A stretch of DNA of 62,417 nt, filler included, from Rhabdomonas costata (lineage: Eukaryota): NCBI GenBank assembly GCA_019059605.1. It is 22 parts of 22 records of this genome, joined end to end, with 100 filler letters (N's around TTAATTAATTAA, not from the genome) between each part and the next. Parts side by side here need not be neighbours in the genome. Positions count along the whole stretch, not along the records: positions 11,347 to 14,083 come from JAHMHO010002195.1; 21 more parts are not named here. One strand, given 5' to 3'. Below, in pieces: positions 1,473-46,060 of the stretch; the first letter of the stretch is position 1; the number at the start of each line of letters is the position of its first letter. Both the position numbers and the translations under genes were made by a program. The notes under the pieces were generated by a model that saw only the letters and a program-made list of their open reading frames with translations, was not told the DNA's origin and did no database searches.

Positions 1473-2331
1473 TCACAGGTTGAGGTCATCGCTGGCGTTG
1501 GCGTTGTAGACGTCATCACGTGAGCTGATGCCAGGGATCGTTGAGGACCTCCGGTCATCCTGCAGGATCGTCTCAAACTTGCGAAACTGAGCTGCTTTGA
1601 TGTCCTCCAGCTGGTTCGCGGTGTACCGCGGCACCAGAAACGTACACACGATCCCGGCCAGACCGACACCGGCGCAGACGTAAACCACCCCCTGAATCCC
1701 AAAGCTGCTGTTGTCCAGCAGCGGAGGGAACACGTAGCCCGCAATGGCAGCTCCGATCTTCCCCGAGGCTGCACTGATCCCATGGCAGGTCGCCTTCACC
1801 TGTGACGGGAAGTACTCTCCAGGGATGATGTAGGTCGTGCTGTTGGGTCCGAAGTTGGAGAAGAAGTAGGTCAGGCCGTAGATGAAGATAAACAATCCAG
1901 GGTAGCCTTGCAGGTGGAAGAACGCCGCGGACAGGATCACGAACAGTACCACCAGCATCACGAAGCCCCCCATCTGGAGGTTCCACCGCCCCACCCGGTC
2001 CAGCAGGGCGATGGTGCAGAAGTATCCCGGCAGCGCCATCAGGACCACGTACAGCGAGCTCAACGCCGTCTGCTCCACGGAGGACCCCAGGCCCATCATC
2101 TTCGTGATCGTGGTGCTGAACAGCCCGTTGCCGTAGAACGAGATATCCAGCAGGAACCACGTTGAGGCGGTGCCCAGGATTTGCCGCCACCAGACGGTGA
2201 ACGCCGCCTTGAGGTTCCTGGCGTGGCTCACGCGGGTCGTCTTGGCAACCGTGAAGGCTTCCGACTCGTGCATCTTGGCCCGGAAGTAGGCAGTGGGGAT
2301 CGCTGGTACAGCACCGAAGGCCAGTGCAAAC
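1473..2331 (-). CDS. MFS inorganic phosphate:H+ symporter (PHO84/PHT1 family), 3' exon(s)
   Basis: Translation contains RFALAFGAVPAIPTAYFRAKMHES, GTASTWFLLDISFYG, ALPGYF, FFSNFGPNSTTYIIPGEYFPSQVKATCHGISAASGKIGA. AG acceptor at 2332-2334; TGA stop at 1473. Confidence 0.93.
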
Positions 2332-2735
2332 CTGTTTCGTGTTGTTCATTAGATCGTTAGACGTTCGGATAAAAAATACTCTCATTGTATAAAACGTTCG
2401 GAGCAAAAATCGTGTTCAAGAGAAGCTTCGTAGAAGCCTTTCGGAATTTGGCAGCACCACTATGCTTGAACGTAAATCGGGCTTTTGGCGGATGGGATTC
2501 CGAACTATTAGCTTAGACAAAACCGAACCGGTAACGCACAAACTTGCCTGCTCTGGTACCAATGACTCGAACCAATATAAAGAAACCCTATATTCATCGG
2601 CAGTCATGGAGTGACGGCAAAGTACATAGGCCGGGAAGTTTTAGCGTAGTTAAGGCGTCTTTAAAAGCCAACAAATCGGAGCTCCATTCGAGAAAAGATG
2701 TAATGCAATTGCACTCGGCCGAACCCCCCAACCCC

Positions 2736-2835: not shown

Positions 2836-5800
2836 TGTGTTAGGTGTGTTTAGTGTGTGGTGTCATTGGGTGTACTTGCGGTATTGCTTTCGTGTATGGG
2901 TTTGCTTGTGGTGTGTCAGATGGCTTGTGGTAAGATGCTGCTTTTGGGTGGTGCTTTGGGTGGACGCTGCTTCTTTGGTGATCCTCGGGATGGTGGTGCG
3001 TGGGGTGTCGGTGTCGAGACACGTGTAGAGAATGCATGAGGGGTTCTTGGGTGAGGAGGAACGTACCACCCTATGGTGGGGAGTTACGACGAGTAGGAAT
3101 GCCTTAAGAGGGGTGTTTGATGTCGGTCAGTTGATGCGTTGCATCTCCTTCCATCCTAAATGCGTTTTTCGGTCGCTCCCCGCATGCGGTACGCTCCCTC
3201 ACAGATACAGGGTAAAGAGAAGAAGAAGAAGACCGCCTCCGGCGACTCTCTCACTACGTTCGCTACGCTCACTTCGTTCGTAATGCAGTGGTTCTCTTCG
3301 CTAAGTTAGTACTTAGTACTCTCAGTACTATCAATATATTAAGGCCTCAACTATTGGTATCACTCAGTGTTCTGGTGAGATTTTCCATATACACAAGGTT
3401 CATCTCTGCTAGAAAGAAAAGAACTGTGATGTTCAAGTGGAAAAGTTAGGGTATTTTTGGAGCTTAATTTGCAGTGCGTTTGAGAATGGAAGGAGCTTAA
3501 AACGACATATTTATATCTGAATGTAGCTTACTATACTTTTTGAAGGCAAAAATGTGCTGGACAACAAGCGCAAGCACTAAGTGGTAAATTTGGAGACAAA
3601 GTAGATTAGTTAGTTTGCAACGAAGTAATATTATTTGCTACTATTGTTATTATTGCTGTTATTCGGGATGAACAATAGAAAGTAGAAAGTACTTAAGACT
3701 AACATCCACTGTTTTATTCAGGAGACTTTCTTCATTACGAGACAAGAGGTTTTGATACATCAGTATGGTTGCCGGAATGCGATAAAAAATGTAGTGGTGA
3801 AAATGAGGAACGTGATGAAGGAAACTTCGGTAATAATCACAGGTGAGAAAAATTATCTTGAAGATAAGTTCATAAAGCAAGCGTTCCAGATAATTTTCCT
3901 GAAATGTAGCCAACATGAGGGCATTAAAAGTAGTGGATGGTTAGAAAGTTTTACGCAGTGAATAAGAAAGGTCTCTTTATAAGAGTCAAAGAATGTAATT
4001 CTTCTCACCGGTTCCTATTTAGTCAAGGTGCCGGAAGAAGGTAATTTGCTGACTGGAGTTCAAACTTGACTAATGGGTGGAGAACTGGACAAGGCGGAGA
4101 TCGGAAGAATAATGTTCAGGACAGACCTCAAGATTTTGATATGGAAGTTGAAAGTTACGACATATTCATACGAAGATGATGTCCTTGATGACGATCATGG
4201 GTATTCAGAGCAAAGATCATATGAAGTCCTCAAAAGTAGATAAAGTTGCTTGAACGCAAACGGTTCATGACCCAGCCCTAAGTGAGCAATATCAGTTGGT
4301 CCGTTCAAATTAGGAAACGCTATTAATATAGCATGAAGTTGGGTAGGTAAGCTTTCTGGTAGGCTGATGCCGAGACCTCGGCAAACAACGCCGTTTTCGC
4401 ATTATGTTGGTGATGGTGGTTTTTGTTGAATTTACGCAGTTTGTTGTTGGTTTAAGTGAAGTTGCTCTTTTAGTGCGCATTTTTTACCTTTTATCTTTCA
4501 TATGAAACCATTTCGTTTTGATGGAGTCGCAGTGTGAAAGTTGGACATAATGTGCATGGCTTGGTGTGCAAAGCCTGGGGTGCACAGCTTTTGCAAAGAG
4601 ACGGATTTGAGACAGTTTTTTTCTTAAAAAGACCACACCACCCGAGAAAAAGCAGAATACCAAACAGGGAAAGCGAACACTCTCGGATTGTGCAGCTTTT
4701 TCGTCGCAAGGTTCCAGCTTGATGCGTTAATGGTACGGGGCCACGGCCCAGTTTTGGAAAACGCTTGGTTGTAAGAAAAAAATCCCCGGTTGCTTTGCAT
4801 TTTGCAGATTTGGGTAGCCAAAAAGCGTAATCTGAGCCCGGAGGGCAAAGAAATGGTTTCCAAAGAAGGGGCGGAGTTTTCAGTTTAGATGCGCGCATCA
4901 ATAAAAATGAGCGGGCGATACAACGACCATGACCGCTGGAAGAAAGAGGCTCTCATCAGAAGGTTCGGCAGGTCTACGTTCAGGACTATCACATCAATTG
5001 AAAAGGAAACCGTGCAGAAGTTCATTAAAAAACGAGATTCTGGACGAGAACCGCCCGTTCACCAAGGAAAAGCGGGAGTCCCCGTCCCTACGCGCGCCTA
5101 TGGCGTTTGGCAGTAAGCCTCATAGGCTGGCCCCGACACCGGGGCTCACGGCCACAACGCGCTGTAGCAGGGAGGGCTTTGGAGGCAAAGAAAAGCCGGA
5201 AAAAAGAGAACTTTCCAACGGAGCCCGGGCGGGGGCGGGCAAAAGGTTGCATGAATGCCAAGCGCCGAACTGTCACATCCGTGGGATCTGGCCGACGCGC
5301 CGTACAAAGGAATGTCTATGTCGACCGCGGCCTGGGGCTCCCCAAAAGAAGGACGCACAGGAGAGACCGAGACCCAGGCTGCCAAGCGGGCTCTGGCGCC
5401 TCCTGCTAGTGTCGGCGTCCGTTACGTATCTGCGGATGTCGCGAGTGGTCACGGAAGTCTCGGCACGGGAGCAACGCGCTGGGCTCCCTTCACCATTGCG
5501 AAAAAGGGCCACGAAAAAAGTTCCCATTGTAACTGGGTTGGACGGGAGGCGGCCTGTCTTCCACAAAACCACNNNNNNNNNNNNNNNNNNNNNNNNNNNN
5601 NNNNNNNNNNNNNNNNTTAATTAATTAANNNNNNNNNNNNNNNNNNNNNNNNNNNNNNNNNNNNNNNNNNNNTGCCTCCGCCCTCGCCCCCGCTGGGCCC
5701 CACGGCTGAGTCGGAACAGTCAAGGCAGGTTTGTTCCACTGGGATGCGGGGTGCATTTTCTCTTCCGTCCTTGCTGGGTGGCAAACTGACATCGATCCGA

Positions 5801-7952: not shown

Positions 7953-9560
7953 CCTCCTGCCCATCGTGTACTTTAGCAACGTAGCAGCCGTTGTTTTTTG
8001 TTCAAAGCACCTCTCATTTGGCAGATGAAAGGATACCTTTACTCGTTTGATTGTTACTGACCTTGGTCTTTACTGTACTCCTGCCAGTTGACGTTCACGT
8101 TCACGGGTGTTTTACGTTGGGTCTTTTAGGTCAAGGGATTCGTCTTGTCCTTTGCCATACACCCACTCGATGATGCAACCAATCGCTGCCAGGCGGCTTT
8201 CCATCGACCCGCGCCAAGTTCTAATTGTTCTCTGTTCATCCTAAACGTTGAGGGGAAGTTTCGGACCAACTGGGGCGAAAGCAAAACAAGCGAACCAACC
8301 AACAAACCAACAAACAAACAGTCGAACAAACAAACAACAAGCGAGGCGCAGAGGCAACAGTGCTGAGACCTGAATCCGGAAAATGCAATGCGCACGAATA
8401 CCCAACACANNNNNNNNNNNNNNNNNNNNNNNNNNNNNNNNNNNNNNNNNNNNTTAATTAATTAANNNNNNNNNNNNNNNNNNNNNNNNNNNNNNNNNNN
8501 NNNNNNNNNCCATTGTGGTGTAATCATCTCAGCGGGGACACATTCACTCCAGGAGATTAGGGTGGTAGAAGGGTGGGTTGTGTACAGGGCAAGCAGCGGT
8601 GGGACATTAACCCCGATGGCACCTCCAGTGGGGGCAAGGCGGTGCGGTCTGCCGTGCTGGAATTCAGCCAGCAGGTTCACAGGCAGGTTGGGGTCACCTA
8701 CGAAGACCTGTGGCCCTCCTGGTATCTCCGCAAGTGAAGTGAGCGGAGAACCACCTTCGAGCGGTTTGCAAGGCACCACTGCCCCGCGCTTTGCACTGCG
8801 ATACTAGGGCTGCGTTGGCTGTGCCTTCCATTGTCTCTGCAGGGTCGATGGGCCGAGTAGCGAAATATGCAAGCCGCTGCAGGCACCTTTTCGGACCGAC
8901 GGGAACCCTGTTGTGCTGGAAAGACGTCAGCTTCGCTTGATTTCTTCACGGTTCCTCCGAGTGTCCGTTCAAGTAGACCCAGACGGGGCAGACGTGACAC
9001 GTGGCATTGAGGGTTGGCTGGCCCCGCGGCCACGCGTTGTCATCTTGCTTTTGCTGGACTGCTAACTGATGCAATGCAATGATTTTTGCAACATCCCGAC
9101 CGTGGCACATGCCTGCTTTGCCCTCGCACAACTCCCTAGAAGCACTTTTGAACAAGTTTTCGGCGTCATTAAGAATTAATTTGTTCTGCGAATGATGTCT
9201 TTTAGGATTGGCTTTGCTGAAATGGTGGCTGGTGTTGTTTGGGGGCCACTAGTGCTTCACTGTGCTTTGGCTTTATTAGAACGTCGACCTGGATTTCCAG
9301 CGGGCTGTTTTAGCTTCGTTTAGGTCAAGGTGCTGAGATTTTTCTTCTGGACTTCTTAGAAAGAATACTTTGCTCTTTCCATTGGGGTACGCGAGCAAAG
9401 TCTATGGGAACCGTCCATTCAGTTATCAAATGTTATCCGCGGCAGTGGGATAAGACGACCAATATCTCGTCTTCTGATGCTGTGGTGCGTGAATGGGAAG
9501 GTGTTTCTTTCTCAAAGCTCTTGTTTCGAAATCGCCTTTGCGCATTGTGAGGAGCGGGGA

Positions 9561-10884: not shown

Positions 10885-11346
10885 GTCAGAGCCCCTCCCC
10901 ACACACATCATCTTCCTCTTTCTTTCTCTTTTTGGTGCACCTCTAACCTGATTTTCTGTGCTCACATGGGTTTTGCTCAGTTTGGGGTTAACCGAAACGG
11001 AGCTGGACACATTGATTGACCACCGTGAAATCTAAGAATCAGTGAGTAGGCCGAAAATTCTCCCCCCCCCCTCCTGGTCCGCGAATTGTCGAAAAGTCGA
11101 CTTTTGTGAAGGACTTGAATTTGGACATTGAGTGTGCCCTACCTTGCTTTGAGACTTTGGGGTGGAGTCTGAGGCACCCATCCCGTCGTGTCCCGTCGTG
11201 TCAGATGAAACCGAAGCCTCTGACAGCAGTCCAACGAACTGAGGTTNNNNNNNNNNNNNNNNNNNNNNNNNNNNNNNNNNNNNNNNNNNNTTAATTAATT
11301 AANNNNNNNNNNNNNNNNNNNNNNNNNNNNNNNNNNNNNNNNNNNN

Positions 11347-12855
11347 GTTGTTGTTGAAAAACGAGAACTCTGGAAAGCACTGAGCGATGCCGCTGTGGTA
11401 TTGCAGCGAGAGATGAACTCACAAGACGTCGCGGTCTGCATTAACGGCTTCTCGAAAGTAGCTTTTCTTAGGTGCAAATACGCCCTGTGGGAAGCTCTTG
11501 CAGAAGCTACTCTTTCACTGCTGGACGCGATGAGTTCTCGGGGGCTGGCGACATGCGTGAATGGCTTCTCCAAGGTGGAGTTTCTTCTCGACGATGAAGG
11601 TCTTTGGGTTCCTCTCGGTGGAAAAGTTGCTGCTGTCAGAAGGCGGATGAATTCCCAAGATCTGGCAAATTGCGTCAATGGCTTATCGAAGGCCGGCCCT
11701 CTCATGGAAAGGCGAGGCATTTGGGACAAGCTTGGGGAGGCCACCGCCTTGGCTGCACAAGAGATGGGTACTCTGGGAGTTGCAATGTGCGTGAATGGCT
11801 TTTCGAAAATTCCGAGCTCTCTTGCCGACAAAAGCCTCTGGGCAGCGCTTAGTGGTGCCGCCATTTCCGAAGTGAGGAATTTGAGTCCTCAGGAGGTGGC
11901 CATCTGCGCAAACGGTTTCTCTAAAGTCAGCCTGCTGCAGGACAATCATCCTCTCTGGATAGCGCTGAAAGAAGCCGCCGTTGCTGCTATTGAGCGGATG
12001 ACACCCCATCAAATCACAAACTGCGTCAATGGCTTTTCGAAGATTCCCATTCTGGCAGAGGACTTCCTGTTGTGGGAGTGCCTGGGGAAAGCATGTGTCT
12101 CAGTGTTGCGTCTTATGCAACCCCATGGCGTGGCAAACTGCGTCAATGGGTTTTCTAAAATTAAACTGCTTCTTCCCGTGGAAAACTTGTGGGTTGCCCT
12201 TGCAAGGGCAGCTTCCTTCCTTCTGAATAAGATGAGTGCACAGAACGTGGCCAGCTGTGTGAATGGCTTCTCGAAAGTCAGCTGTGTGTTGAATGATATG
12301 GTCCTTTGGAGGGAGCTGGGCATTGCGAGTACATACGTGGTTTCCGAGATGAACAGGCAGCACCTGGCGAACTCCGTGAACGGCTTCTCGAAGTGCGAGC
12401 TCATCTTCTGCGAGGTGGAGCTGTGGGAGACTTTGGGCAGCGCCGTTGTTCCCATGGCAGCGGGAATGAACTCTCAGGATATCTCCAATTGCGTTAACGG
12501 CTTTTCCAAGGTCGAGGCACTTCTGGGGAACGAGGCGCTGTGGAATGAACTAGGGAAGCGTTCCGTGTCCCTGCTGTACGCCCCAGAAGCACAGCATGTT
12601 GCGAGCTGCGTGAACGGCTTTTCCAAAATTGTATTTCTGCTGGAGAACTGTACCCTTTGGGAGTCCCTCAGCCGAGCATCGGCTTCTCTTGTGGGGCAGA
12701 TGAGTGCCCAGCAAGTATCCAATTGTGTGAATGGGTTTTCCAAGGTCGACATTCTTTTTGGGGACACCGCCCTGTGGGAGGCTTTCGGGAGGGCAGCTGT
12801 ATCCATGGTGCCTCAGATGGACCCTCAGGGGGTGGCGAACTGCGTGAATGGGTTC
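11347..12855 (+). CDS. Alpha-solenoid protein of tandem 39-aa repeats (OPR/HPR/SKWP-like), 5'-truncated by the contig edge
   Basis: 12 complete 39-aa (117-nt) units from 11413 plus partial units at each end. Consensus MxxQxVANCVNGFSKVxxLxxxxxLWxxLGxAxxxxxxx. No introns. The frame stays open to TAG at 12945, but periodicity stops at 12855. Confidence 0.9.
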
Positions 12856-13262
12856 CCCACGGCACCGTTCGCTCCAACGGCACCTCTCGCGAGCATCCGT
12901 GGCCAACAGCGCTCACTCTCTAAAGGTGGTGGTCCCACGTTTTAGGTTGAGTTATACCCGCCAGCCACCGACCGAACGCCACCCCTCAGCCAGCGCCCAT
13001 TGTTGATGCGCCATAATCCTGACTCGCTGCAGTTCTTGGAGTTCTTGGATTGGTGTGAAGGCACTTCTTCAGTGCCCTTCCTTCAGATCTGGTTTTAGCG
13101 AGAACCACAGATTATATACATCCATAAAAGTGTCCCATCCCAACGTTTGGTCTTTCCTGGTCCCGCTTCATTGCTTTTATGGTTGTAGAGTGGTCATGTG
13201 GCTCTGCTTCGCAGCATCTGCCCCTTCACCACTTTCTCTCCCTTCTTTCTTTCTTTACGAAG

Positions 13263-13716
13263 ACAACCGCGGGGCCCAGGCCTTGGCTGGGGTCCTCCCC
13301 ACCAACCGTAGCTTGACCCATCTCAACTTGAGCCACAACCTGCTTGGACCCGAGGGCAGCGCGGTCTTGGCTCATGCTGTCCAGGCAAATCCACGAATCC
13401 GGTGTGAGTCCGCATCGCGATACCATTGGGGGTCGGTGGAATCAGTATTAGTGGCTGGCTATCGTGATTGTTTTGGTGATTACCATTTGGTCAGGAGGAT
13501 TCCTGTAGCCTTACCTATAGGAACTATAGGGGCATCATGACGAAAGAGAAACTGCTGATGCTTCTCAAAAGGAAGTGCACGTACCGTGCCAAATAAACAC
13601 GAATCATTACTTCTAAGTTGGTTGTGTCGGAGTTTGATTTGTGTTCTGTGTATGTGTTTTTTCTTTTCTGCTATTCAGGCACATTGACCTCGCTGGAAAT
13701 TGTGTCAGCGAATCAG
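13263..13716 (+). CDS. Ribonuclease-inhibitor-type leucine-rich repeat protein, internal exons (13263-13401, 13679-13716)
   Basis: GAQALAGVLPTNRSLTHLNLSHNLLGPEGSAVLAHAVQANPRIR|HIDLAGNCVS shows LxxLxLxxNxL at 28-aa spacing. GT-AG junctions are in frame. Confidence 0.8.
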
Positions 13717-19443: not shown

Positions 19444-21387
19444 GGGAGGCCTGGATAAAACAACAAAGAGGGCAACGTTAACAACCAGCCAGAACCTGGA
19501 GGCAGTACATGCACCGGTTGGAGTTGTGAACTTCTTTAAGGAGGGTGGAAACCCCCGCAACTTTTCATCTGCGCATCAACCGACTGCAATAGTACGCTCC
19601 ACGTGCGCAAGCGTAAACTTGCTGGCCTCGGATGTGACTTCTTGTGTCCCTCCAAAAAGAGAAATACTTGCTAGTCTGCACATGCGCAGCGTAAATGGGC
19701 AGTAAGAGATGTCGACAAATATTTCTCTTTTTGCTGTTTTTTTGGGGGGAGTCCTNNNNNNNNNNNNNNNNNNNNNNNNNNNNNNNNNNNNNNNNNNNNT
19801 TAATTAATTAANNNNNNNNNNNNNNNNNNNNNNNNNNNNNNNNNNNNNNNNNNNNTTGAAGGTGCGACGTCCCCTAACCCGAGGTGAGTTGGTGGGGGGG
19901 CTCGGTCCCCCCCCCTCCGTCGTGCATCGCCTCCCAACCACACGCCATCACATTATCATGATCAAGAGGGCCCATATACAAGACAGTTACGGTTGTACCT
20001 GTTGCAGTACCGTTTGTGTGGCGCAGACTCGTTCACGTACCGAGACATTGAAGACAAGCGCGAAGCAGAGCAACGTGATACGACGGCTGCAATAAGCCGG
20101 CGTGTTCAAGGCTCTGGATCAGTGCAGGTGTGGGAACGAGGAGTTGAAGCTGTCCAACCGGAAGGGGAAGACAGTTCTTCGGTGCATTTAAAGCGACGTT
20201 GCACTGCGACGTACGCGGTTGCGTCGGTGTTTGGGAGGAAGAAGAGAGTTGTGCTGGGAAACAACGTGAACATGGTGTACTTATGGGCAAAGAAGACGCC
20301 TTCAAGACGAATGTCCGAATACTTGGTATCGGCCAGGAAGCACTGAACGCCTACCAGCTACACATCCGGCAACCAAACTGATGAGGAGGGGTGCCTCAGC
20401 CGAACAGCTGGGGTGGGGGTGCCATAGCCGAACTAGAACCGCTCGTTCATCACCGAAACACGGAAAATATCTGGACTACAACCTGCCCTCTGCTGTGCGC
20501 GTTTCCAACGGAAACCTCAGTAATAAATATGCCTCGCCCGCAAGCGGGACGGGCGCCGCTATTACCTCGTACACCTCAAAGACTTGGAGGCAAGGACTAC
20601 ACCTTCAAGAACTCCTTCGTTGAAGTGCGGGCGCAACTGTCCGATACTACAGTGGGGCCGTGGCCAGCAATTCGGTTCCTGCCGGGACTGGGAAGCAGCG
20701 GGGGCGAGAGTGACCTCCACGAAGGAAAACACGAGGGACACTGAAGCTGTGTTATAGTGCCATATTTTTCTTTTGGTATTCTCCTCTGCACGGTTCCATC
20801 GAGGCAAGTCTTGACAATTGTACAAAGTGTGAAGCATCGAATATAGTTTTAAGTTGGGACAACGTGGTCTCCAGCGCGCGGTGAAGACCGGGGAGGGCTT
20901 CCGCAATGGTCAGGCTCCAAACCTCACCAATCGTCGATTCGAATCAACCACTCATTTTGGCAGGAAGTATTTTTCTGACCTTTCACCCTTGACGACTCTT
21001 GCGTATCCGCTTTTTGCCGCACGCCGCGTGTAGTGTACTTGAGGGTGGGAAGGTGCTGGTAGTGGAACGCTCTGTGAAGATTTTGGTTCCTTGTTGGTTG
21101 TTTTTTCAAAGACAGAAATGCTTGATGCTGGTTTTGGACTTCCAGACAATAAGACAGAATTAGTTTTTAGGCGGAGGTGATACCCCGCGTTCGGTAAGGA
21201 CGGTGAGGTGAACTTTGGCTTTGGTTAAAAACAATTTTAGAAGCGGGGGTAGGCAAAGTACTGTTTTCGCAAGGTCCAAGATGTGTGTGTGAAGGAGTTT
21301 CAACGTGGACAGACTGATTGGGTTCCCTTTTTGGTTTTGCTGGAATGAAGTGTTGAGCAGACTTCTTTTCTTCTACCCAAAGCAAAC

Positions 21388-21946
21388 ATGAGCGGAGCGG
21401 CTTTCCTGGGTTCCAACAAGCTACGTAGCGTGAGTATGTGGCTGTTGCGGGGTTCCGGTCGTTCGTTCCATTCAGGCCGCAACCTTCTGGAAAAATTTGT
21501 TCGCAGCAAGGTGTGTCGGAGTCCTTCCAGAAACGGAGAAAATGGGCTTGCTGGAGATTCTAAAGAACAACCACCACAGAAAAAGGGAATAGAAATGGTG
21601 GGGTTCCTTCTGCAGGCTCATCTCAACGTGGGTACGATTGGGCATGTCGATCACGGAAAAACCACTTTGACAGCAGCAATCACGATGGTTTTGGCGAAGA
21701 AGAACCTCGCAAAGCTTCGAAAGTACGATGAAATTGACAACTCCCCCGAAGAAAAGGCCCGGAAGATCACCATCAACACCACACATGTCGAGTATGAGAC
21801 TGAGCAAAGGTAACTGTTCTGCTGCAGCTGGGGGACTTGAAAGCTGCCACCTCTTGCGTTCGAAGCAAGACCAACGCCTTAAGCGCTTTATGTGCTTCCA
21901 TGAGTATCTGAAAACATGTACGTTGGTTTCTTTTACCAAGTTTCTC

Positions 21947-22819: not shown

Positions 22820-23289
22820 TGTGTGTTGGGGGAGTGGCGAAGGACCTTGCACGTGCGGCGGAACTTTATTGGGTTGCTGCGGAGCAGGGTCTCGCGGAAG
22901 CGCAGGTCAGCCTTGGCTTGTGCTACGAGACCGGCGAGGGGGTGACCAAGGACCTTGCACGTGCTGCAGAGCTGTATAGGAAGGCCGCGGAGCAGGGCCA
23001 TGCAGATGCGCAGTGCCACCTGGGGTTGTGTTACGAGAATGGCAAGGGGGTGGCGAAAGACCTTGTACGTGCGGCGGAGCTGTATAGGAAGGCCGCGGAG
23101 CAGGGCCACGCAGATGCGCAGTTCAACCTGGGGTTGTGCTACGAGAATGGTGAGGGGGTGACCAAGGACCTTGTTCGTGCTGCGGAGCTGTATGAGGAGG
23201 CCGCGGAACAGGGCCATCCTGAAGCGCAGTTCAACCTGGGTTTATGCTACGATCTATATAGGAAGACCTCGGAGCAGGGTTACGGATAA
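22820..23289 (+). CDS. Sel1-like repeat protein, C-terminal fragment
   Basis: 36-aa units AQFNLGLCYENGEGVTKDLVRAAELYRKAAEQGH, repeated about four times and near-identical at DNA level (108 bp). Confidence 0.95.
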
Positions 23290-37041: not shown

Positions 37042-37118
37042 TGGCGCACCCGAGATGAGTCGAACCCCTAACCTTATGATCCGTAGTCATATACTCAATG
37101 CAATTGAGCTACGGGTGC
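37042..37118 (-). tRNA. trnR-ACG: Bacterial-type tRNA-Arg(ACG) with encoded CCA, possibly degenerate
   Basis: Reverse complement GCACCCGTAGCTCAATTGCATTGAGTATATGACT-ACG-GATCATAAGGTTAGGGGTTCGACTCATCTCGGGTGCGCCA (77 nt). The acceptor and anticodon stems pair. The D-loop GG is lost and the T stem has a G-A mismatch. Confidence 0.88.
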
Positions 37119-37606: not shown

Positions 37607-39729
37607 TCTTCTTTTTCATCAGGTCCGTCAGGTTGGCTTCCACTGTGGAGTAGTCCTCCACGAACCTCTGGTAAAAGCCACACAGTCATAAGAAGCTTTT
37701 AACATCCGTCGGGTTCTTTAGCTGCGGCCACTTATATATCGCCATTGAGCTTTCTCGGCTGTGGCCTGATTCCATTCCTTCCAACAATGAAACCACAGTA
37801 CTCTACCTCAGACTGAGCAAACACGCATTTATCCGGATTTGCATATAGCTTTTCTTTATCCAACCTCTGGTATAGCACTCGCAACGCCTCGACGTGCGCT
37901 TCTAACGTGTCCGTGTGTACCAATATATCATTCACGTACGCCCCCGTCGTCTCCCAAAGGTCTTCCAGAATGAAATCCATCGTCCGTTGAAATGTATCTG
38001 TGGCGTGACACAATACAAACGGCATCACCAAAACCCGGTAAGCTCCGTACTTTGTCTTAAATGCCGTCTGATCCACGTGGTCTGGATGTATCCTCATCTG
38101 GTGAAATCCTGCGTGCAAGTCTAACTTCAAAAACCACTTAGCTTTCCCTGCGTGATCAATAATCTCGTCTATCCGTGGCATGTGGTACGAATCCGTGACA
38201 GCAATTGCATTTAGCGGTTTGTAGTCCACACACAGTCTCAATTTACCGTTGGCTTTGGCACAAACAGCACTCCAGCTCCGTAAGGAGAGGTTTCTGGCTC
38301 TATGAAACCTAGCTTCCTCAGCTCCTCATCTTCAGCTGGTGACAAGGAAACTGGGGCTGCTCGGGGGGCTTGTCGCTGGCATGTCCGCTGTCTCGCTCCG
38401 CATCCAACATGCCCGCAGTTGGACAAGTGATGCGGAAGGAATCTATAGCTGGTAACGCCTGAATCTCATATATCCGTCTGCTTCTCCATACTTTAACGAA
38501 ACGGCGTTTCCAATCAATCTGGTGTTGTAGCCTAGTCAATAACGGGTATCCTAGTACCACTGGGATCGCCGTCTTTATCACTCTCAAGAATAGCTTTACC
38601 GGAATTGTACCCAACATTCCCACGATCTTCACGAAATGAGTCACAGGAAGGCCTTCCCCATTGTCCACTCTCACTGTGAGCTTCTGCTGAAGCGGGTACA
38701 GCTGTAGCCTCAAACGCTGCACCACATCTTCACTTATAAAGGAGTCCGACGCTCCTGAGTCCAACAGAGCTCTCACTTGGATATTCCAAATTCACAACGG
38801 CAGAAACAATAGCGGATGAGGGGTGGATGGTCGGGTGGAGTCCCGACGAACCCATTCACTTCCTTGCCCACTTTTTGGAAGGGCAGCACGAAAAGCGGTA
38901 CCGGGCAACTTTCCTTGCCGCGACGGATGCTGTTGACGGCTACCTCCTGCCGTTATTCTAACCACTCTTCCAATGAAGCATTCTCTGAAATCTCTTCTGT
39001 CACAACATTCCATTAACAAATCAACGCTTTATCTTGGGTACAAGAATCACTCGAGAACTTACCTTTGGAATGGCCATCCTTCCACTCCGTTATCACGAAC
39101 AACACTGGACCTTCTCCTGATTCTCGGACCTTTTTCTCGCTTTCTGAAAACTCAGAGGATGTGCTTTGCAACAAAGGTTCCCGTAACCTTTTCCTGGTCT
39201 TAATCAACGCAGGGTTCTCTTCCTTGGTGAAATTTGTTTTCGCTAGGGGAGACTATGCCTCCGTCGATGGACTGAGCGGTCTTCTAATGCCTTTCTCTTC
39301 AACAGGGAGCACATTCATAGCCGATCTATATCATTTCTTCAACTTTGGCTCATACTCTTGACCTTTAGCTCCACTTTTCAAGGTCTTTAGCCTGGCTTGC
39401 ACAACTGCGGGCAACGTCTCTGCCTTTCCAACTGCGAGACCAGAACTCTTTGCAAGCGCTAACTGCGACGTGGTCATCCCCCCCTTGACTGGGGTGGGTT
39501 GGCTTTCACTTCTTTCCTCAGAAGCTCTTTTGAGGATGCGGCTGGGAACTTTAGCTGTGGCGGGCCCAATTGGTTGGACAGGAGAGGTCAGGCTTCCTGC
39601 CCCATCTATTTTGGGAACTCCACTTTCCTTGGTTGTTCTCCAGCCACTGCGGTCACTTGTCTCCGGTTTTACAGTTCCTTTTTAGCCAGTTTACAATCTC
39701 TGTAAACGTGTGCGTGGCTCCCCCACCCC
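37607..39729 (-). mobile_element. Decayed Ty3/gypsy LTR retrotransposon (gag-like region, aspartic protease ~38318-38800, reverse transcriptase ~37610-38310)
   Basis: Protease RALLDSGASDSFISE. RT motifs SPYGAGVLFVPK, LRLCVDYKPLN, DSYHMPRIDE, KLDLHAGFHQMRI, TAFKTKYG, VMPF, and YVND in place of YVDD. Frameshifts are present; no RNase H or integrase follows. Confidence 0.92.
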
Positions 39730-42233: not shown

Positions 42234-43070
42234 GTATGCGGATGTCACCTTATCCCTCAACTTTGGTCGAGCGCCTTCTTTTCTAGTTAGCTTCCTTCCC
42301 TTTGATAGGCGGGCAAAATAGACTTAAGCCCAGAGGAATATTGCTTTGATTACGACAGTACTCCGAGGTCAGACGAAACGTAATGTAGTGTACGGTTTAT
42401 TACGAGAAAAACGGGAAAATGTCCGTGTATGTGTGTCTGTGTGTGTAGACTTTTTTGCGCTTTTTTTTCCCGCGAAGGAGTCGGCGTTTCAAGCCTCCGT
42501 AGGGCCTTCAAGCCCAGTTTTGTTGGGGTGGGCTATCCGATGGAAAAATTCCGGGGCAAAAATGTCTACACACACAAACACNNNNNNNNNNNNNNNNNNN
42601 NNNNNNNNNNNNNNNNNNNNNNNNNTTAATTAATTAANNNNNNNNNNNNNNNNNNNNNNNNNNNNNNNNNNNNNNNNNNNNGTGGTGGGTGTGGTTGGGG
42701 TTGTTGGGAAAGCATCAGCGTGATGCGTATTTGTTGTCCAATTGTTTCAGTTTACTTTAAAATGATAACTAGATTTCGTGTTGGTCGGGAGAAATTTCCC
42801 GATCCAAACAACACCTTTCTTCATTGGAAATGATCGGATGGGGTGGCGGAGGTTCAAGATCAAATCAGGTCGAACAGTTCACATCCTACTGTCTCTCCAG
42901 ATCTGAAAAAACCCTGCCCTGGTATGTTCTGGAGACTGGAAAATGTACCCTGTGTGCTGGAGAGGGATGCGAACACTTTGAAGTGCAATGAAGGCTGGAT
43001 TTTTTTTGGCACTCCACAGCTTACTTTGCATGCCTTTTTCTCTTTTCTTGCTTCGTTTGTGTCACTTGCC

Positions 43071-45415
43071 ATGGGCTCGAACAGCTTCAAAGCCGCGCCT
43101 GGGCGGGTTCAGCTTTCTCCTACACAAGTGGGCGGAACCCTTTTGATAGCGCCTTCCATTCACGATCATGTCGCCGGTGGAATCACTGGGAATTTGCTGG
43201 ATACCGCCATGGAGGGTGATGGTTCTCGGCTCGATATACTTGCTGTTCCCCCTTCGATTTGCAAGCCTGACTCCTCTCGCTGCGGTGAATGTGTGTATCG
43301 CATTCCATCAGAGGAAGGAAAACATTCCCTTGGTTCAGACTTAGTACCTACTGAGCTTCCTTTCAGCAATTTGGATGGCTCATTGCCGGGCCAAGTTCCC
43401 CCTGAAGAATGCCCCAGTGAGATTGGCGATGAAGCTCGACTTGGGGCGCTCATCAAGCGTGGTGACGTGAATGGGCTGCGACTGTATCTTTCTATGGAGC
43501 GACCGTCTCCCGATCAGCTGCGAAAGGAGCCGTACGCCTCGATGCTGTACTTTGCCTCACGGCATGGCTGCGTGGAGCTGATGACAGTGGCCTTTGAGTG
43601 GTGCGGGTGGGAATGCTTGGATTGGGCTGGTCCCCTTTCTGGAAACCGTGCTTTACATACCGCCGCGGGTCATGGGCACCTGAAAGCTCTGGTTTGGCTT
43701 CTAGTGCGTCATGGTGACCGTGACCGTTGCTTGAATGTACGAAAGTTGAAGAACAAAGTCGGTGAATCTCCGGTGGATGTGTGCATGCGACTTTCCAGTG
43801 TCCACCCGGAATGCCTCCAGGTGCTCGAAACGTTCCTGGCTTCGGAATCTGGATTAGTGGATAGCGTACCACTCCGCGAAACTGCAGCATCAGCTGGTTT
43901 CTACCATCCGAAGTTCACTCGTTGCTCCACTTCGAGTCCGTTCATCGGAGATCGGTTTCGTATGGTCACCTTTGACGACATTTCAGTCGACCATCTTCTC
44001 GACGGCATTCGACAAGAAGGGTCGACTTTTTTGTCAATCATCCCCGCTTATTCGGAATGGAATAAAATTCGGCAAACGCTTCTGTGCGACGACGGTGCTA
44101 AGCGCAACCCATGGGCCCGCCATCCTACGCCGGAGTAGATTGAGGCGCGCCTGAAGGAGGCCTACTTAAATGGTAGTGAGGAGGAGCTCTACAACGCCGC
44201 TATCCAGGTGTTCACGCTGGAGTCCTTTGTGTCCCGTTCTGTCAATGCTGCTCTGTGTAGCAGCAGCGACGCCGAGGCTAGGTTTCATTTGAGGCCCTAT
44301 GTGTGGCTGCTGCACAGTGCGGTGCGGCGGCTGACGGAAACAATGCCGCACAGAGGGCCGTGCTACTGCTCATTTTCCCTGAGCGCTGAGCTGCAGGGAA
44401 AGTATGCTCCACAGCAAGACGAGCGGCGCAACTTGATATCCATGGAAGGGCTGCTGCTATGCACAGCCTCGGCGGAGAAGGCGGTGCTCAGGCTGCAGTT
44501 GTTGCAGCACAACACTCTGCTGCTGATCAAACCAGGAAATGCGAACGATCCGCGGTGTTGTGGGGCGAAAATTTCGCATATATCGGCGTATCCCAACGAA
44601 GAGGAGGTGCTGTTTTGTTCAGGGCAGCACTTTCGACTGAAAGGCGTTGAGATAATGACGTTTTCCAAAGCTTGTAGTCGTTTGTGCGTGCTCGGAGGAT
44701 GCTGTGATGAGGTTCAGCAGGTCTGCGTTGTTGAACTTGAAGCAGTGGATGAGTTTTGGAGATTTGCCCCTGACCTGTTTGTTGATGATGGGAATACTCA
44801 GGATATTGTTCAACTTTTAGAAAGTCGTCTGGCGGCCGACATCCGGATGCACAGAGATTGTTACTCTGAAGTTGCGAGAGTTCAGGATACCATGGCGAGA
44901 ATTCTGGAAAGTAAAGGAATGCTGGCCGAGGCGGAGGTCCTGTTCACAGAGTCTCTAAAGATACGAAAGCAGCATTTGGGCGAAGAGCACCCTGAGGTTG
45001 CCGTCAGCATGAGTAATCTTGCTGACGTGCACCGCGTTCAGGGAAGATACTCAGCTGCTGGACCTTTGTATGAGGAGTCATTAAGGATTTTCAACCAAAG
45101 CCGTATTGGTGACCAATCTAAGCGTGCTGCTACGATGTGTAACTTGGCAACTCTGTATCGCAACCAGGGTAAGTTTTCGGCTGCTGAGCCATTATTTCAG
45201 GAGGCACTAAGAGTCCGAAAACAAGAGCTCGGAAGTAATCATCCAGAGGTGGCTGTCGTTTTGAGCAGTCTTGCGGGACTCTACCGAGACCAGCAAAAGT
45301 ACTCGGCAGCGGAGCTTCTGTATGAGGAGTGCTTGAAAATCCGGAGGCTGCATTGCGGCCGTGACCATCCCTCCGTGGTTAGTTGTATGAACAATCTTGC
45401 GCTGGTGTACCGGGC
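43071..45415 (+). CDS. Ankyrin repeat + ARTC-type ADP-ribosyltransferase-like domain + TPR (kinesin-light-chain type) protein, with one in-frame TAG at 44136-44138; 3'-truncated
   Basis: Ankyrin: MLYFASRHGCVELM, GNRALHTAAGHGHLKALVWLL, KNKVGESPVD. ART: FTLESFVSRSVNAAL, ISHISAYPNEEEVLF. TPR: ESLKIRKQHLGEEHPEVAVSMSNLA, about five 42-aa units. ORFs 42843-44138 and 44208-45415 share one frame. Confidence 0.85.
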
Positions 45416-46060
45416 NNNNNNNNNNNNNNNNNNNNNNNNNNNNNNNNNNNNNNNNNNNNTTAATTAATTAANNNNNNNNNNNNNNNNNNNNNNNNNNNNN
45501 NNNNNNNNNNNNNNNCCACTCCCAGACCGGACCGTACCAGACCGGAGACCTGACATTGACCTCAGAACTCGAGCTAGAGTGACGGGTTGGAGCTCATATT
45601 TGGTGGTAAGGTAGTACTCCTGAGATGAGTTGGTTGGCCGCTTCCCACCCTCGGACTCCTTCTCTACGCCGAGATATGGCCCCTTCAAGGTCCCATTTTG
45701 GAACTTTTAAGGGCATTTTCGACTTCGCAAATTTTCATGGTCCCGGGGTGCGCTTTTCGGACCTTTGCAGGCCTGCGTACTGAGCCTAAGCTTTCGGCCG
45801 GGCCTGCTTAGCATACCTAAGGGTAGAGCCCAGGAGTACTTCATGCTGGCACCGGAGTGGGCTGGAATGCTTCGGTTTAGAGCCACGCTAGAGGCCATTT
45901 CAGGGCCATTTTGGGGTATTTTTGAGCCCTTTTTGCCTTTACACAGGCTTGCAAGGGCCCTTTTTGGCCCTTTGCAGGCCTGCATACTGATAAGAGAAAG
46001 AACTGTAGGCTGGCGCACCGTCCGCCCACCTGCACGCCGGTGTGCCAGCAGCGATTTTTG

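Follow-up and report, generated by a model that had tools for sequence, protein, structure and literature searches.

What kind of protein is built from helical repeats held to a strict period of 39 residues, and what might it do in the cell? The question is raised by an open reading frame (ORF) at positions 11347-12945 of the DNA analysed here, a stretch of 62,417 bases (the window) from the Rhabdomonas costata assembly GCA_019059605.1; the contig concerned is JAHMHO010002195.1. Proteins of the OPR, HPR and FASTK families regulate RNA in organelles, and we know of no established mode of RNA recognition for their repeats, partly since most natural arrays are degenerate. The repeat array of this ORF appears to belong to the FASTK/RESC6/HPR/OPR helical-repeat class, as a member restricted to its lineage, and its product probably acts in an organelle.

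The window joins 22 contigs of 2,732-2,864 bases, chained by 21 linkers. Across its whole length 42 runs of N, each exactly 44 long, form 21 pairs that flank the 12-mer TTAATTAATTAA, and the resulting linkers lie at 2736-2835, 5573-5672, 8410-8509, 11247-11346 and 17 further places. The repeat ORF's own contig spans 11347-14083. Because the frame opens at the first base past a linker, the gene lacks its 5' part and with it a start codon; what is seen is an incomplete gene, a fragment bounded by the contig end. The adjacency of the contigs is artificial, so genes on the others are uninformative on the genomic context of the repeat gene, and inferences from neighbouring genes or long-range context across the window's contigs are unsafe. 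The fragment has the following parts:

11247..11346, no strand: assembly linker (N44 + TTAATTAATTAA + N44), the contig boundary that truncates the 5' end of the gene
11347..12945, + strand: ORF of 532 codons plus a TAG stop at 12943-12945, without a start; runs off the 5' end of the contig
11347..11412, + strand: partial unit 0, 22 amino acids (aa), the helix-B part with the L-W motif (from anchor spacing and translation)
11413..12816, + strand: twelve complete 39-aa units (from anchors, alignment of units and the AlphaFold2 model)
12817..12855, + strand: partial unit 13, 13 aa, helix A only, stopping after N-G-F (from anchor spacing)
12856..12942, + strand: non-repeat Pro/Ala-rich tail of 29 aa ahead of the stop (from translation; low model confidence)

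The repeat array and its age

The array is marked by thirteen N-G-[FL]-[SP] anchors, and all 12 spacings between them are exactly 39 residues with zero indels, which bears out a preliminary description of the window as holding 12 indel-free units flanked by partial ones. The units share the consensus M..Q.vAnCVNGFSKv..Ll.d..LWeaLg.A.vs...., in which all 12 complete units agree on N11, G12, S14, K15 and W26, while M1, C9, F13, L25 and L29 are each present in 11 of them; the first residue of unit 5 is Leu (TTG). The core C-x-N-G-[FL]-S-K and Trp26, which the same description had called nearly invariant, are indeed so, but its emphasis on positions 4, 5 and 8 as the variable ones stands only in part: the residue triplets that it listed match the aligned columns, but these positions are not specially variable, position 4 being Q in 8 of the 12 units (entropy 1.42) and 20 of the 39 unit positions varying as much as, or more than, position 8.

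At the DNA level the units are well separated, with pairwise nucleotide identities of 45-62% (mean 52%), a third codon position identity of 36%, and two to three synonymous codons in use for each invariant residue. Five invariant residues maintained over third positions that are 36% identical indicate that the repeat is old and under purifying selection. The array is thus a protein-level repeat in which selection has acted on the C-V-N-G-F-S-K ... L-W scaffold and synonymous sites are saturated, in agreement with the earlier view of an old selected array rather than a minisatellite. A DNA minisatellite was rejected, Tandem Repeats Finder having returned zero DNA repeats inside the ORF and the units being only 52% identical. 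ORFs on the reverse strand over the array were also rejected, as shadows of the repeat. A tblastn search of the ORF against the window found no second copy among the 22 contigs.

Relatives of the repeat unit

Which known proteins carry such units? A Pfam scan of the ORF returned no meaningful family, and no PPR, FAST_1, FAST_2 or RAP match at E-values up to 10. The sole match to exceed a gathering score, PF11108 (viral glycoprotein L) at 11389-11469 (ORF residues 15-41; 27.1 bits against 25), spans just 27 residues of one repeat unit and was rejected as a probable chance match to this repeat type. A phmmer search of PDB sequences identified RESC6, a component of the trypanosome RNA-editing substrate-binding complex, described there as a 'RAP domain-containing protein' (E 2.6e-10), with 259 query residues aligned onto 249 chain residues and the motif N-x-x-x-A-F-S-K kept in register across successive repeats; a single-unit profile gave no real match against the PDB (best E 0.44).

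A search for proteins of near-equal length, covering 5.8 billion proteins, yielded five: those numbered here P0001, P0002, P0003 and P0004, and a weak Cardinium match. P0001 (E 9.1e-68, 38% identity), P0002 and P0003 come from short ENA contigs, and P0004 (E 5.5e-8 to the ORF) has a RAP domain. P0044, which aligns to the ORF by tblastn at E 7e-37, matches FAST_1 at E 1.2e-17, and P0068 also matches FAST_1. The search for longer proteins returned 17, of which the named ones all belong to Bradyrhizobium, Mesorhizobium, Sinorhizobium or Ralstonia; most are annotated as 'shikimate kinase' or 'XopAD/skwp family type III secretion system effector', and the best, a rhizobial effector with SKWP repeats and a shikimate kinase, has E 9.6e-40 at 28% identity. 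The NCBIfam model NF041399 (XopAD/skwp) is matched at E 8.8e-46 over model positions 330-639, repeats only, with 155.9 bits against a cut-off of 2000.

A HMMER search with the unit profile, run without a word filter over 1.84 billion representative proteins, matched only 47 proteins with E-values of 0.001 or below, 9 of which reached 1e-30 or below. The labels PF26188 and PF26172 were precomputed on P0001-P0003 and on SKWP proteins; the Pfam scan did not return either. In full-text literature searches, motif strings gave papers unrelated by title, and PF26188, PF26172, PF07671 and DUF1601 gave none. Locus scans of metagenome contigs confirmed 0 of 36 pattern matches with alignment A1 and 0 of 26 with the ORF. 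Repeat spacing and unit consensus among the relatives are as follows:

P0001, P0003, P0037, P0040 and P0043: 39 aa
P0069 (JGI): 39 aa
P0065, a Chlamydiales protein: 39-41 aa
P0033, a Bradyrhizobium 'DUF1601' protein: 39-40 aa (one 48)
P0002, P0035, P0044, P0058 and P0068: 37-38 aa
SKWP effectors: 40-46 aa
Consensus of RAP/FAST_1-linked units: FNAQ.LANTVNAFAK.NH..PeLFD.VATAAIpII.T
Consensus of rhizobial SKWP units: FthQ.LANLVNGFSKWPeea.cRqAtvAIA.EV.RRa.rLSd

In profile-profile comparisons the array unit aligned with the RAP/FAST_1-linked units along its whole length (36 columns, probability 97.9%, E 3.7e-13), and with the SKWP/DUF1601 units over helix A alone (columns 2-17 or 2-19, E 4e-11 to 4e-10). 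Since the match with SKWP is limited to helix A, the very low E-values to the giant effectors stem from their many helix A copies. Over the whole unit the array appears to group with eukaryotic FASTK/HPR/OPR-type repeats, among comparison groups that were all drawn from matches to the array query itself. The bacterial SKWP/DUF1601 effector repeats share helix A with this class. An OPR/SKWP relationship had been suggested beforehand, and the matches to RESC6 (E 2.6e-10), to the RAP/FAST_1-unit profile (E 3.7e-13) and to XopAD (E 8.8e-46) uphold it.

Predicted fold

In an AlphaFold2 model of the ORF, computed from an alignment of 22 rows, all structure is helical and each unit has two main helices, as expected for the helix-turn-helix units proposed in the preliminary description (mean predicted local distance difference test (pLDDT) 80.1, predicted template-modelling score (pTM) 0.71). 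The model is weak at residues 319-356 and in the tail, and pLDDT falls below 50 at residues 506-511 and 525-532. The modelled unit consists of helix A (3-14; C-V-N-G-F-S-K), a short helix (18-21) and helix B (23-35), with L25-W26 near its start, and the ORF product is predicted to be an alpha-solenoid of at least 13 helix-turn-helix repeats in strict 39-residue phase. Hydrophobic residues fill positions 6, 7, 10 and 13 in 9-12 of the 12 units, and by helical periodicity these positions form the predicted buried face of helix A. A helical-wheel reading places positions 4, 8, 11 and 15, including the invariant N11 and K15, on what would be one polar stripe.

When the model was compared with the PDB by Foldseek, RESC6 again came first (8fni_6, E 1.8e-9; 8fn4_6, E 3.0e-9, template-modelling (TM) score 0.64/0.74; TM 0.62-0.74 over the RESC6 matches), at 16-17% identity. 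It was followed by other RESC chains and by mitoribosome chains from Toxoplasma, Polytomella and Chlamydomonas, and then by the Polytomella ATP synthase chain 6rd4_2, a plain structural subunit. Weaker matches included designed PPR proteins (E about 6e-4, TM 0.34) and generic HEAT proteins with poor TM scores.

A probable role in the organelle

The closest solved or characterised relatives act on organellar RNA, and we therefore infer an organellar RNA role for the array. Passages of two papers describe RESC6 as holding and shielding guide RNA on its concave surface and in a crevice formed with RESC5 (PMC12687428, PMC12936278), binding to mitochondrial RNA is reported in a further source for HPR proteins and for the FASTK family of humans (PMC6212722), and HPR and RAP proteins are placed at the periphery of the Toxoplasma mitoribosome in another (PMC11652630, in the portion dealing with them). 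The array protein is, by analogy, likely to have an organellar, probably mitochondrial, role in binding RNA or in scaffolding a ribonucleoprotein, to which we assign a probability of roughly 0.6. Inside the organelle, probably the mitochondrion, the solenoid would use one face to bind RNA or to keep an RNA-protein complex assembled. A ladder of generic contacts may come from the invariant N11 and K15, and specificity could be added by the variable polar residues at positions 5 and 8 of helix A.

The leaders of the homologues P0001, P0035, P0052 and P0058 are basic and acid-poor, with 8-17 K+R and 4-7 D+E in the first 110 aa, a suggestive hint of organelle targeting. P0001 and P0052 also have in common a module ahead of their repeats (approximately R-x-L ... 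T-P ... E-x-L ... V-T ... S-F ... C-V-N-x-L-S), which suggests a family with a defined N-terminal domain, lying outside the fragment in the window.

Several points weigh against a role on organellar RNA. With a net charge of -3 and a pI of 6.0 the array is slightly acidic, unlike many RNA-binding solenoids, which are basic. FAST_1, FAST_2 and RAP were not found on the 5'-cut fragment by Pfam at E up to 10, nor was a RAP-like stretch found anywhere in the window; the N-terminus, with a possible targeting peptide, and any C-terminal domain (RAP or LRR, for leucine-rich repeat) lie beyond the view that the contig affords. The homologue N-termini were predicted by automatic gene calling on short contigs and may in part be non-coding, the face carrying positions 4, 5, 8, 11 and 15 is assigned from helical periodicity only, the structural neighbours include the ATP synthase subunit 6rd4_2, and RESC6 itself is described, in a passage of PMC12687428, as a molecular scaffold.

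Some of these observations would suit a protein that acts as a scaffold between proteins or as a structural subunit within a mitochondrial complex, of the peripheral mitoribosomal or ATP-synthase type, in which no RNA sequence is recognized and the invariant residues serve packing. The near-neutral charge is in keeping with such a protein, as are the Polytomella ATP synthase chain and HEAT proteins among the structural neighbours, the scaffold label of RESC6 and the peripheral position of HPR/RAP proteins on the Toxoplasma mitoribosome (as those parts of PMC12687428 and PMC11652630 have it), and the invariant residues occupy the end of helix A, the turn and the beginning of helix B, sites at which one would expect residues that serve packing. 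However, a Lys and an Asn recur without exception from unit to unit on the polar stripe of helix A, which is more than packing needs, and the closest characterised relatives (RESC6, FASTK and HPR) all contact RNA according to the portions of PMC12687428 and PMC6212722 that treat them. We consider a purely structural role unlikely, while giving it real weight beside the organellar RNA role.

Could the array go further and read RNA base by base? As an idealised FASTK/HPR/OPR/SKWP array, it would recognize one nucleotide per 39-aa unit through positions 5 and 8 of helix A, with the N11/K15 ladder on the backbone, a proposal that we regard as quite doubtful. A passage of a 2025 review states that no recognition code is known for the FASTK/HPR/OPR/SKWP superfamily (PMC12691811). 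If the correspondence of one unit to one base were true, it would provide the first decipherable code of the superfamily and a route to predicting the targets of bacterial SKWP effectors. With 12 indel-free units, a near-constant scaffold and few relatives, the array is a convenient natural template for testing a repeat code.

Origin of the gene and its 3' end

The strongest long matches, to rhizobial effectors with SKWP repeats and shikimate kinase (E 9.6e-40) and to XopAD (E 8.8e-46), could also mean that the gene is a recently acquired SKWP/DUF1601-type effector gene or that the contig is a bacterial contaminant. The motif N-G-F-S-K is identical to the SKWP core, and phasing of 39-40 aa is also seen in the Bradyrhizobium DUF1601 protein and the Chlamydiales protein. 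Yet identity to the bacterial proteins is merely 25-30%, whereas the closest relatives, at 38-50% identity, are short-contig proteins with presequence-like leaders; the SKWP profile match stops at helix A (columns 2-17) while the RAP/FAST_1-unit match spans the unit, and the W-P that follows S-K in SKWP units is absent from the array. The GC content at third codon positions (GC3) of the repeat ORF, 0.60, lies among the values of 0.51-0.82 for other window ORFs, and its relative synonymous codon usage (RSCU) correlates with that of four other window ORFs at 0.55, those ORFs correlating among themselves at r 0.26-0.52. In both measures the repeat ORF resembles the other ORFs of the window, and with candidate spliced exons on the same contig (see below), a recent bacterial origin is very improbable.

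The preliminary description had taken the lack of introns as a hint of retroposition or bacterial origin. Other uninterrupted frames in the window reach 434 and 442 aa (42834-45467) and 290 aa (1473-2345). Because the window holds several long open frames and the repeat ORF is limited by its contig, that argument is unsupported, and codon usage is ordinary. Retroposition was rejected in view of these other long frames and the ordinary GC3 and codon usage.

Two candidate exons lie downstream of the repeat ORF:

13263..13401, + strand: candidate exon encoding an RNI-type LRR (LRR_6, E 3.7e-5, 23.9 bits against a cut-off of 23.4); borders placed by eye
13679..13716, + strand: candidate 38-nt mini-exon continuing the LRR (H-I-D-L-A-G-N-C-V-S-E-S); identified by eye

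They begin 318 nt past the stop of the repeat ORF, on the same strand. The first is preceded by a polypyrimidine tract and AG and followed by a GTGTGAGT donor; the mini-exon, preceded by CAG and followed by GTAACG, is phase-compatible with it, and between the two lies a candidate intron of 277 nt with canonical GT-AG borders. Candidate LRR exons with such splice borders indicate that the contig is eukaryotic and spliced, and the stretch is predicted to be the 3' part of a eukaryotic nuclear gene.

The proximity of these exons, with their canonical splice sites, raises the possibility that the array is the N-terminal part of a fusion with the RNI-type LRR of the 3' exons, a protein that need not be organellar. 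The first LRR exon opens mid-domain behind its acceptor-like polypyrimidine tract and AG, unit 13 breaks after N-G-F, which suggests that the domain does not naturally finish where the annotation stops, and a weak phase-1 donor candidate read by eye in the tail (12925|12926, AAAG|GTGGTG) would join both frames in phase. That donor is weak, however, compared with the two clear donors nearby (GTGTGAGT and GTAACG), and with several GT dinucleotides in the tail a phase match is likely to arise by chance. An in-frame ATG at 13196 could begin a separate LRR gene, and Pfam scans of 15 retrieved homologues gave 0 LRR matches. A solenoid joined to an RNI-type LRR is, to our knowledge, not an architecture of OPR/HPR proteins, and we judge the fusion improbable.

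Other features of the window

At 42834-45413 (+) two long frames lie back to back with a single stop between them, the first of 434 aa and the second of at least 425 aa, running off the contig end. The first encodes ankyrin repeats, while the second has a weak match to NAD:arginine ADP-ribosyltransferase (E 3e-4, under the cut-off) followed by strong TPR_10/TPR_12 repeats; a single gene, interrupted by a short intron or read through at the stop, could account for both. A Sel1-repeat ORF (E 1.6e-41) starts at a contig end at 22822-23289 (+). The uninterrupted 290-aa stretch at 1473-2345 (-) belongs to a PHS-family phosphate:H+ symporter. It is most similar to an ENA protein (73%) and, among named proteins, to two of Amoebidium parasiticum (62% and 55%), a lineage hint towards Ichthyosporea/Holozoa that has the weight of one marker and no more. 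Two adjoining frames at 37732-38791 (-) resemble a retroelement protease and reverse transcriptase, as judged from translation alone, and a tRNA gene of that contig and strand lies roughly 600 nt from them, at 37045-37118 (-) (Rfam, 48.9 bits). By eye, 21349-21813 (+) encodes a leader and then the G1 region of an EF-Tu-type GTPase, a candidate first exon of an organellar EF-Tu; a long poly-Gln frame on the opposite strand overlaps it.

Comparison with known repeat classes

How, then, does the array compare with the repeats already described? RESC6 is its best PDB match in both sequence and fold and is likewise a solenoid of two-helix repeats, but RESC6 repeats are shorter and irregular, and the identity in structural alignment is merely 16-17%. 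RESC6 is also named a RAP-domain protein, whereas no RAP was seen on the fragment, and kinetoplastid editing, the context in which RESC6 works, is not expected in the organism that carries the array. Homology to the N-terminal helical repeats of FASTK/RAP proteins was found through RESC6, P0044, P0004 and the unit profiles.

The apicomplexan HPR and human FASTK/FASTKD1-5 repeats resemble the array over the whole unit in the 36-column profile alignment, their helix A reading F-N-A-Q-x-L-A-N-T-V-N-A-F-A-K against M-x-x-Q-x-V-A-N-C-V-N-G-F-S-K, and the Toxoplasma mitoribosome chains among the structural neighbours add to the likeness. The HPR unit, however, is 37 aa long rather than the 39 seen in 12/12 spacings, human FASTK repeats are degenerate by the account given in part of PMC6212722, unlike the 12 indel-free units here, and the array differs from both in opening helix B with L-W; on the 5'-cut fragment Pfam returned no FAST_1, FAST_2 or RAP. 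PPR repeats (35 aa) are more distant, with no PPR match in Pfam and designed PPR proteins only weak fold neighbours.

OPR proteins of Chlamydomonas, plants and Paulinella share with the array a unit length in the range of 38-40 aa, two helices per unit and, as a section of PMC12691811 indicates, a conserved Trp near 24-26 and Q/L near 5-6; the Chlamydomonas and Polytomella mitoribosome chains among the fold matches are a further link. The OPR motif PPPEW, given in passages of PMC6212722 and PMC12691811, is not found in the array, in which positions 21-24 are variable, Pro occurs in few units and L25-W26 is kept. The array core N-G-F-S-K also stands against L-N-A-x-A-K-L in Paulinella OPR units as quoted in part of PMC7729196, a comparison with that published motif rather than directly with curated OPR profiles. 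The same 2025 review states in passing that 39-aa tricopeptide repeats are 'apparently missing' (PMC12691811). Since OPR repeats are defined as 38-40 aa, in the definitions excerpted from PMC6212722 and PMC8635915, a length of 39 aa is not new in kind despite that statement.

With the SKWP/XopAD/RipS effectors and DUF1601 proteins the array shares the helix A motif Q-x-L-A-N-x-V-N-G-F-S-K. It differs in period (39 against 40-46 aa), in a profile match confined to helix A, in having V/I and a variable residue at 16-17 after S14-K15 where SKWP units have W-P, and in a family score of 155.9 against 2000 bits; it also lacks the effector modules (RdRP-like (RNA-dependent RNA polymerase-like), pyrophosphokinase and shikimate kinase) and stands in a eukaryotic context. 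The connection between the two worlds has been drawn before. The proteins found most similar to Paulinella OPR-type proteins in databases were SKWP effectors and RAP proteins of bacteria, according to a portion of PMC7729196, and in 2026 the SKWP repeat region was likened, in a passage of PMC13667924, to the helical repeats of RAP proteins.

The array misses the letter of HPR (37 aa), of OPR (PPPEW) and of SKWP (W-P, 42 aa and the family score), yet clearly falls within their common class. The earlier suggestion of a candidate new family consequently holds at the level of a subfamily and not above it, the superfamily and the OPR-SKWP link having already been published, as the relevant part of PMC7729196 makes plain; no described family with the same consensus was matched at full length, Pfam giving no real match and NF041399 reaching 156 of 2000 bits. 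What is distinctive is the strict 39-aa register over 12 units, together with the scarcity of relatives, and a hybrid consensus, in which an SKWP-like N-G-F-S-K in helix A is combined with an OPR-like Trp opening helix B. With a helix A near-identical to that of SKWP and a helix B of eukaryotic type, the array may serve as a useful intermediate for tracing how the bacterial and the organellar repeats are related.

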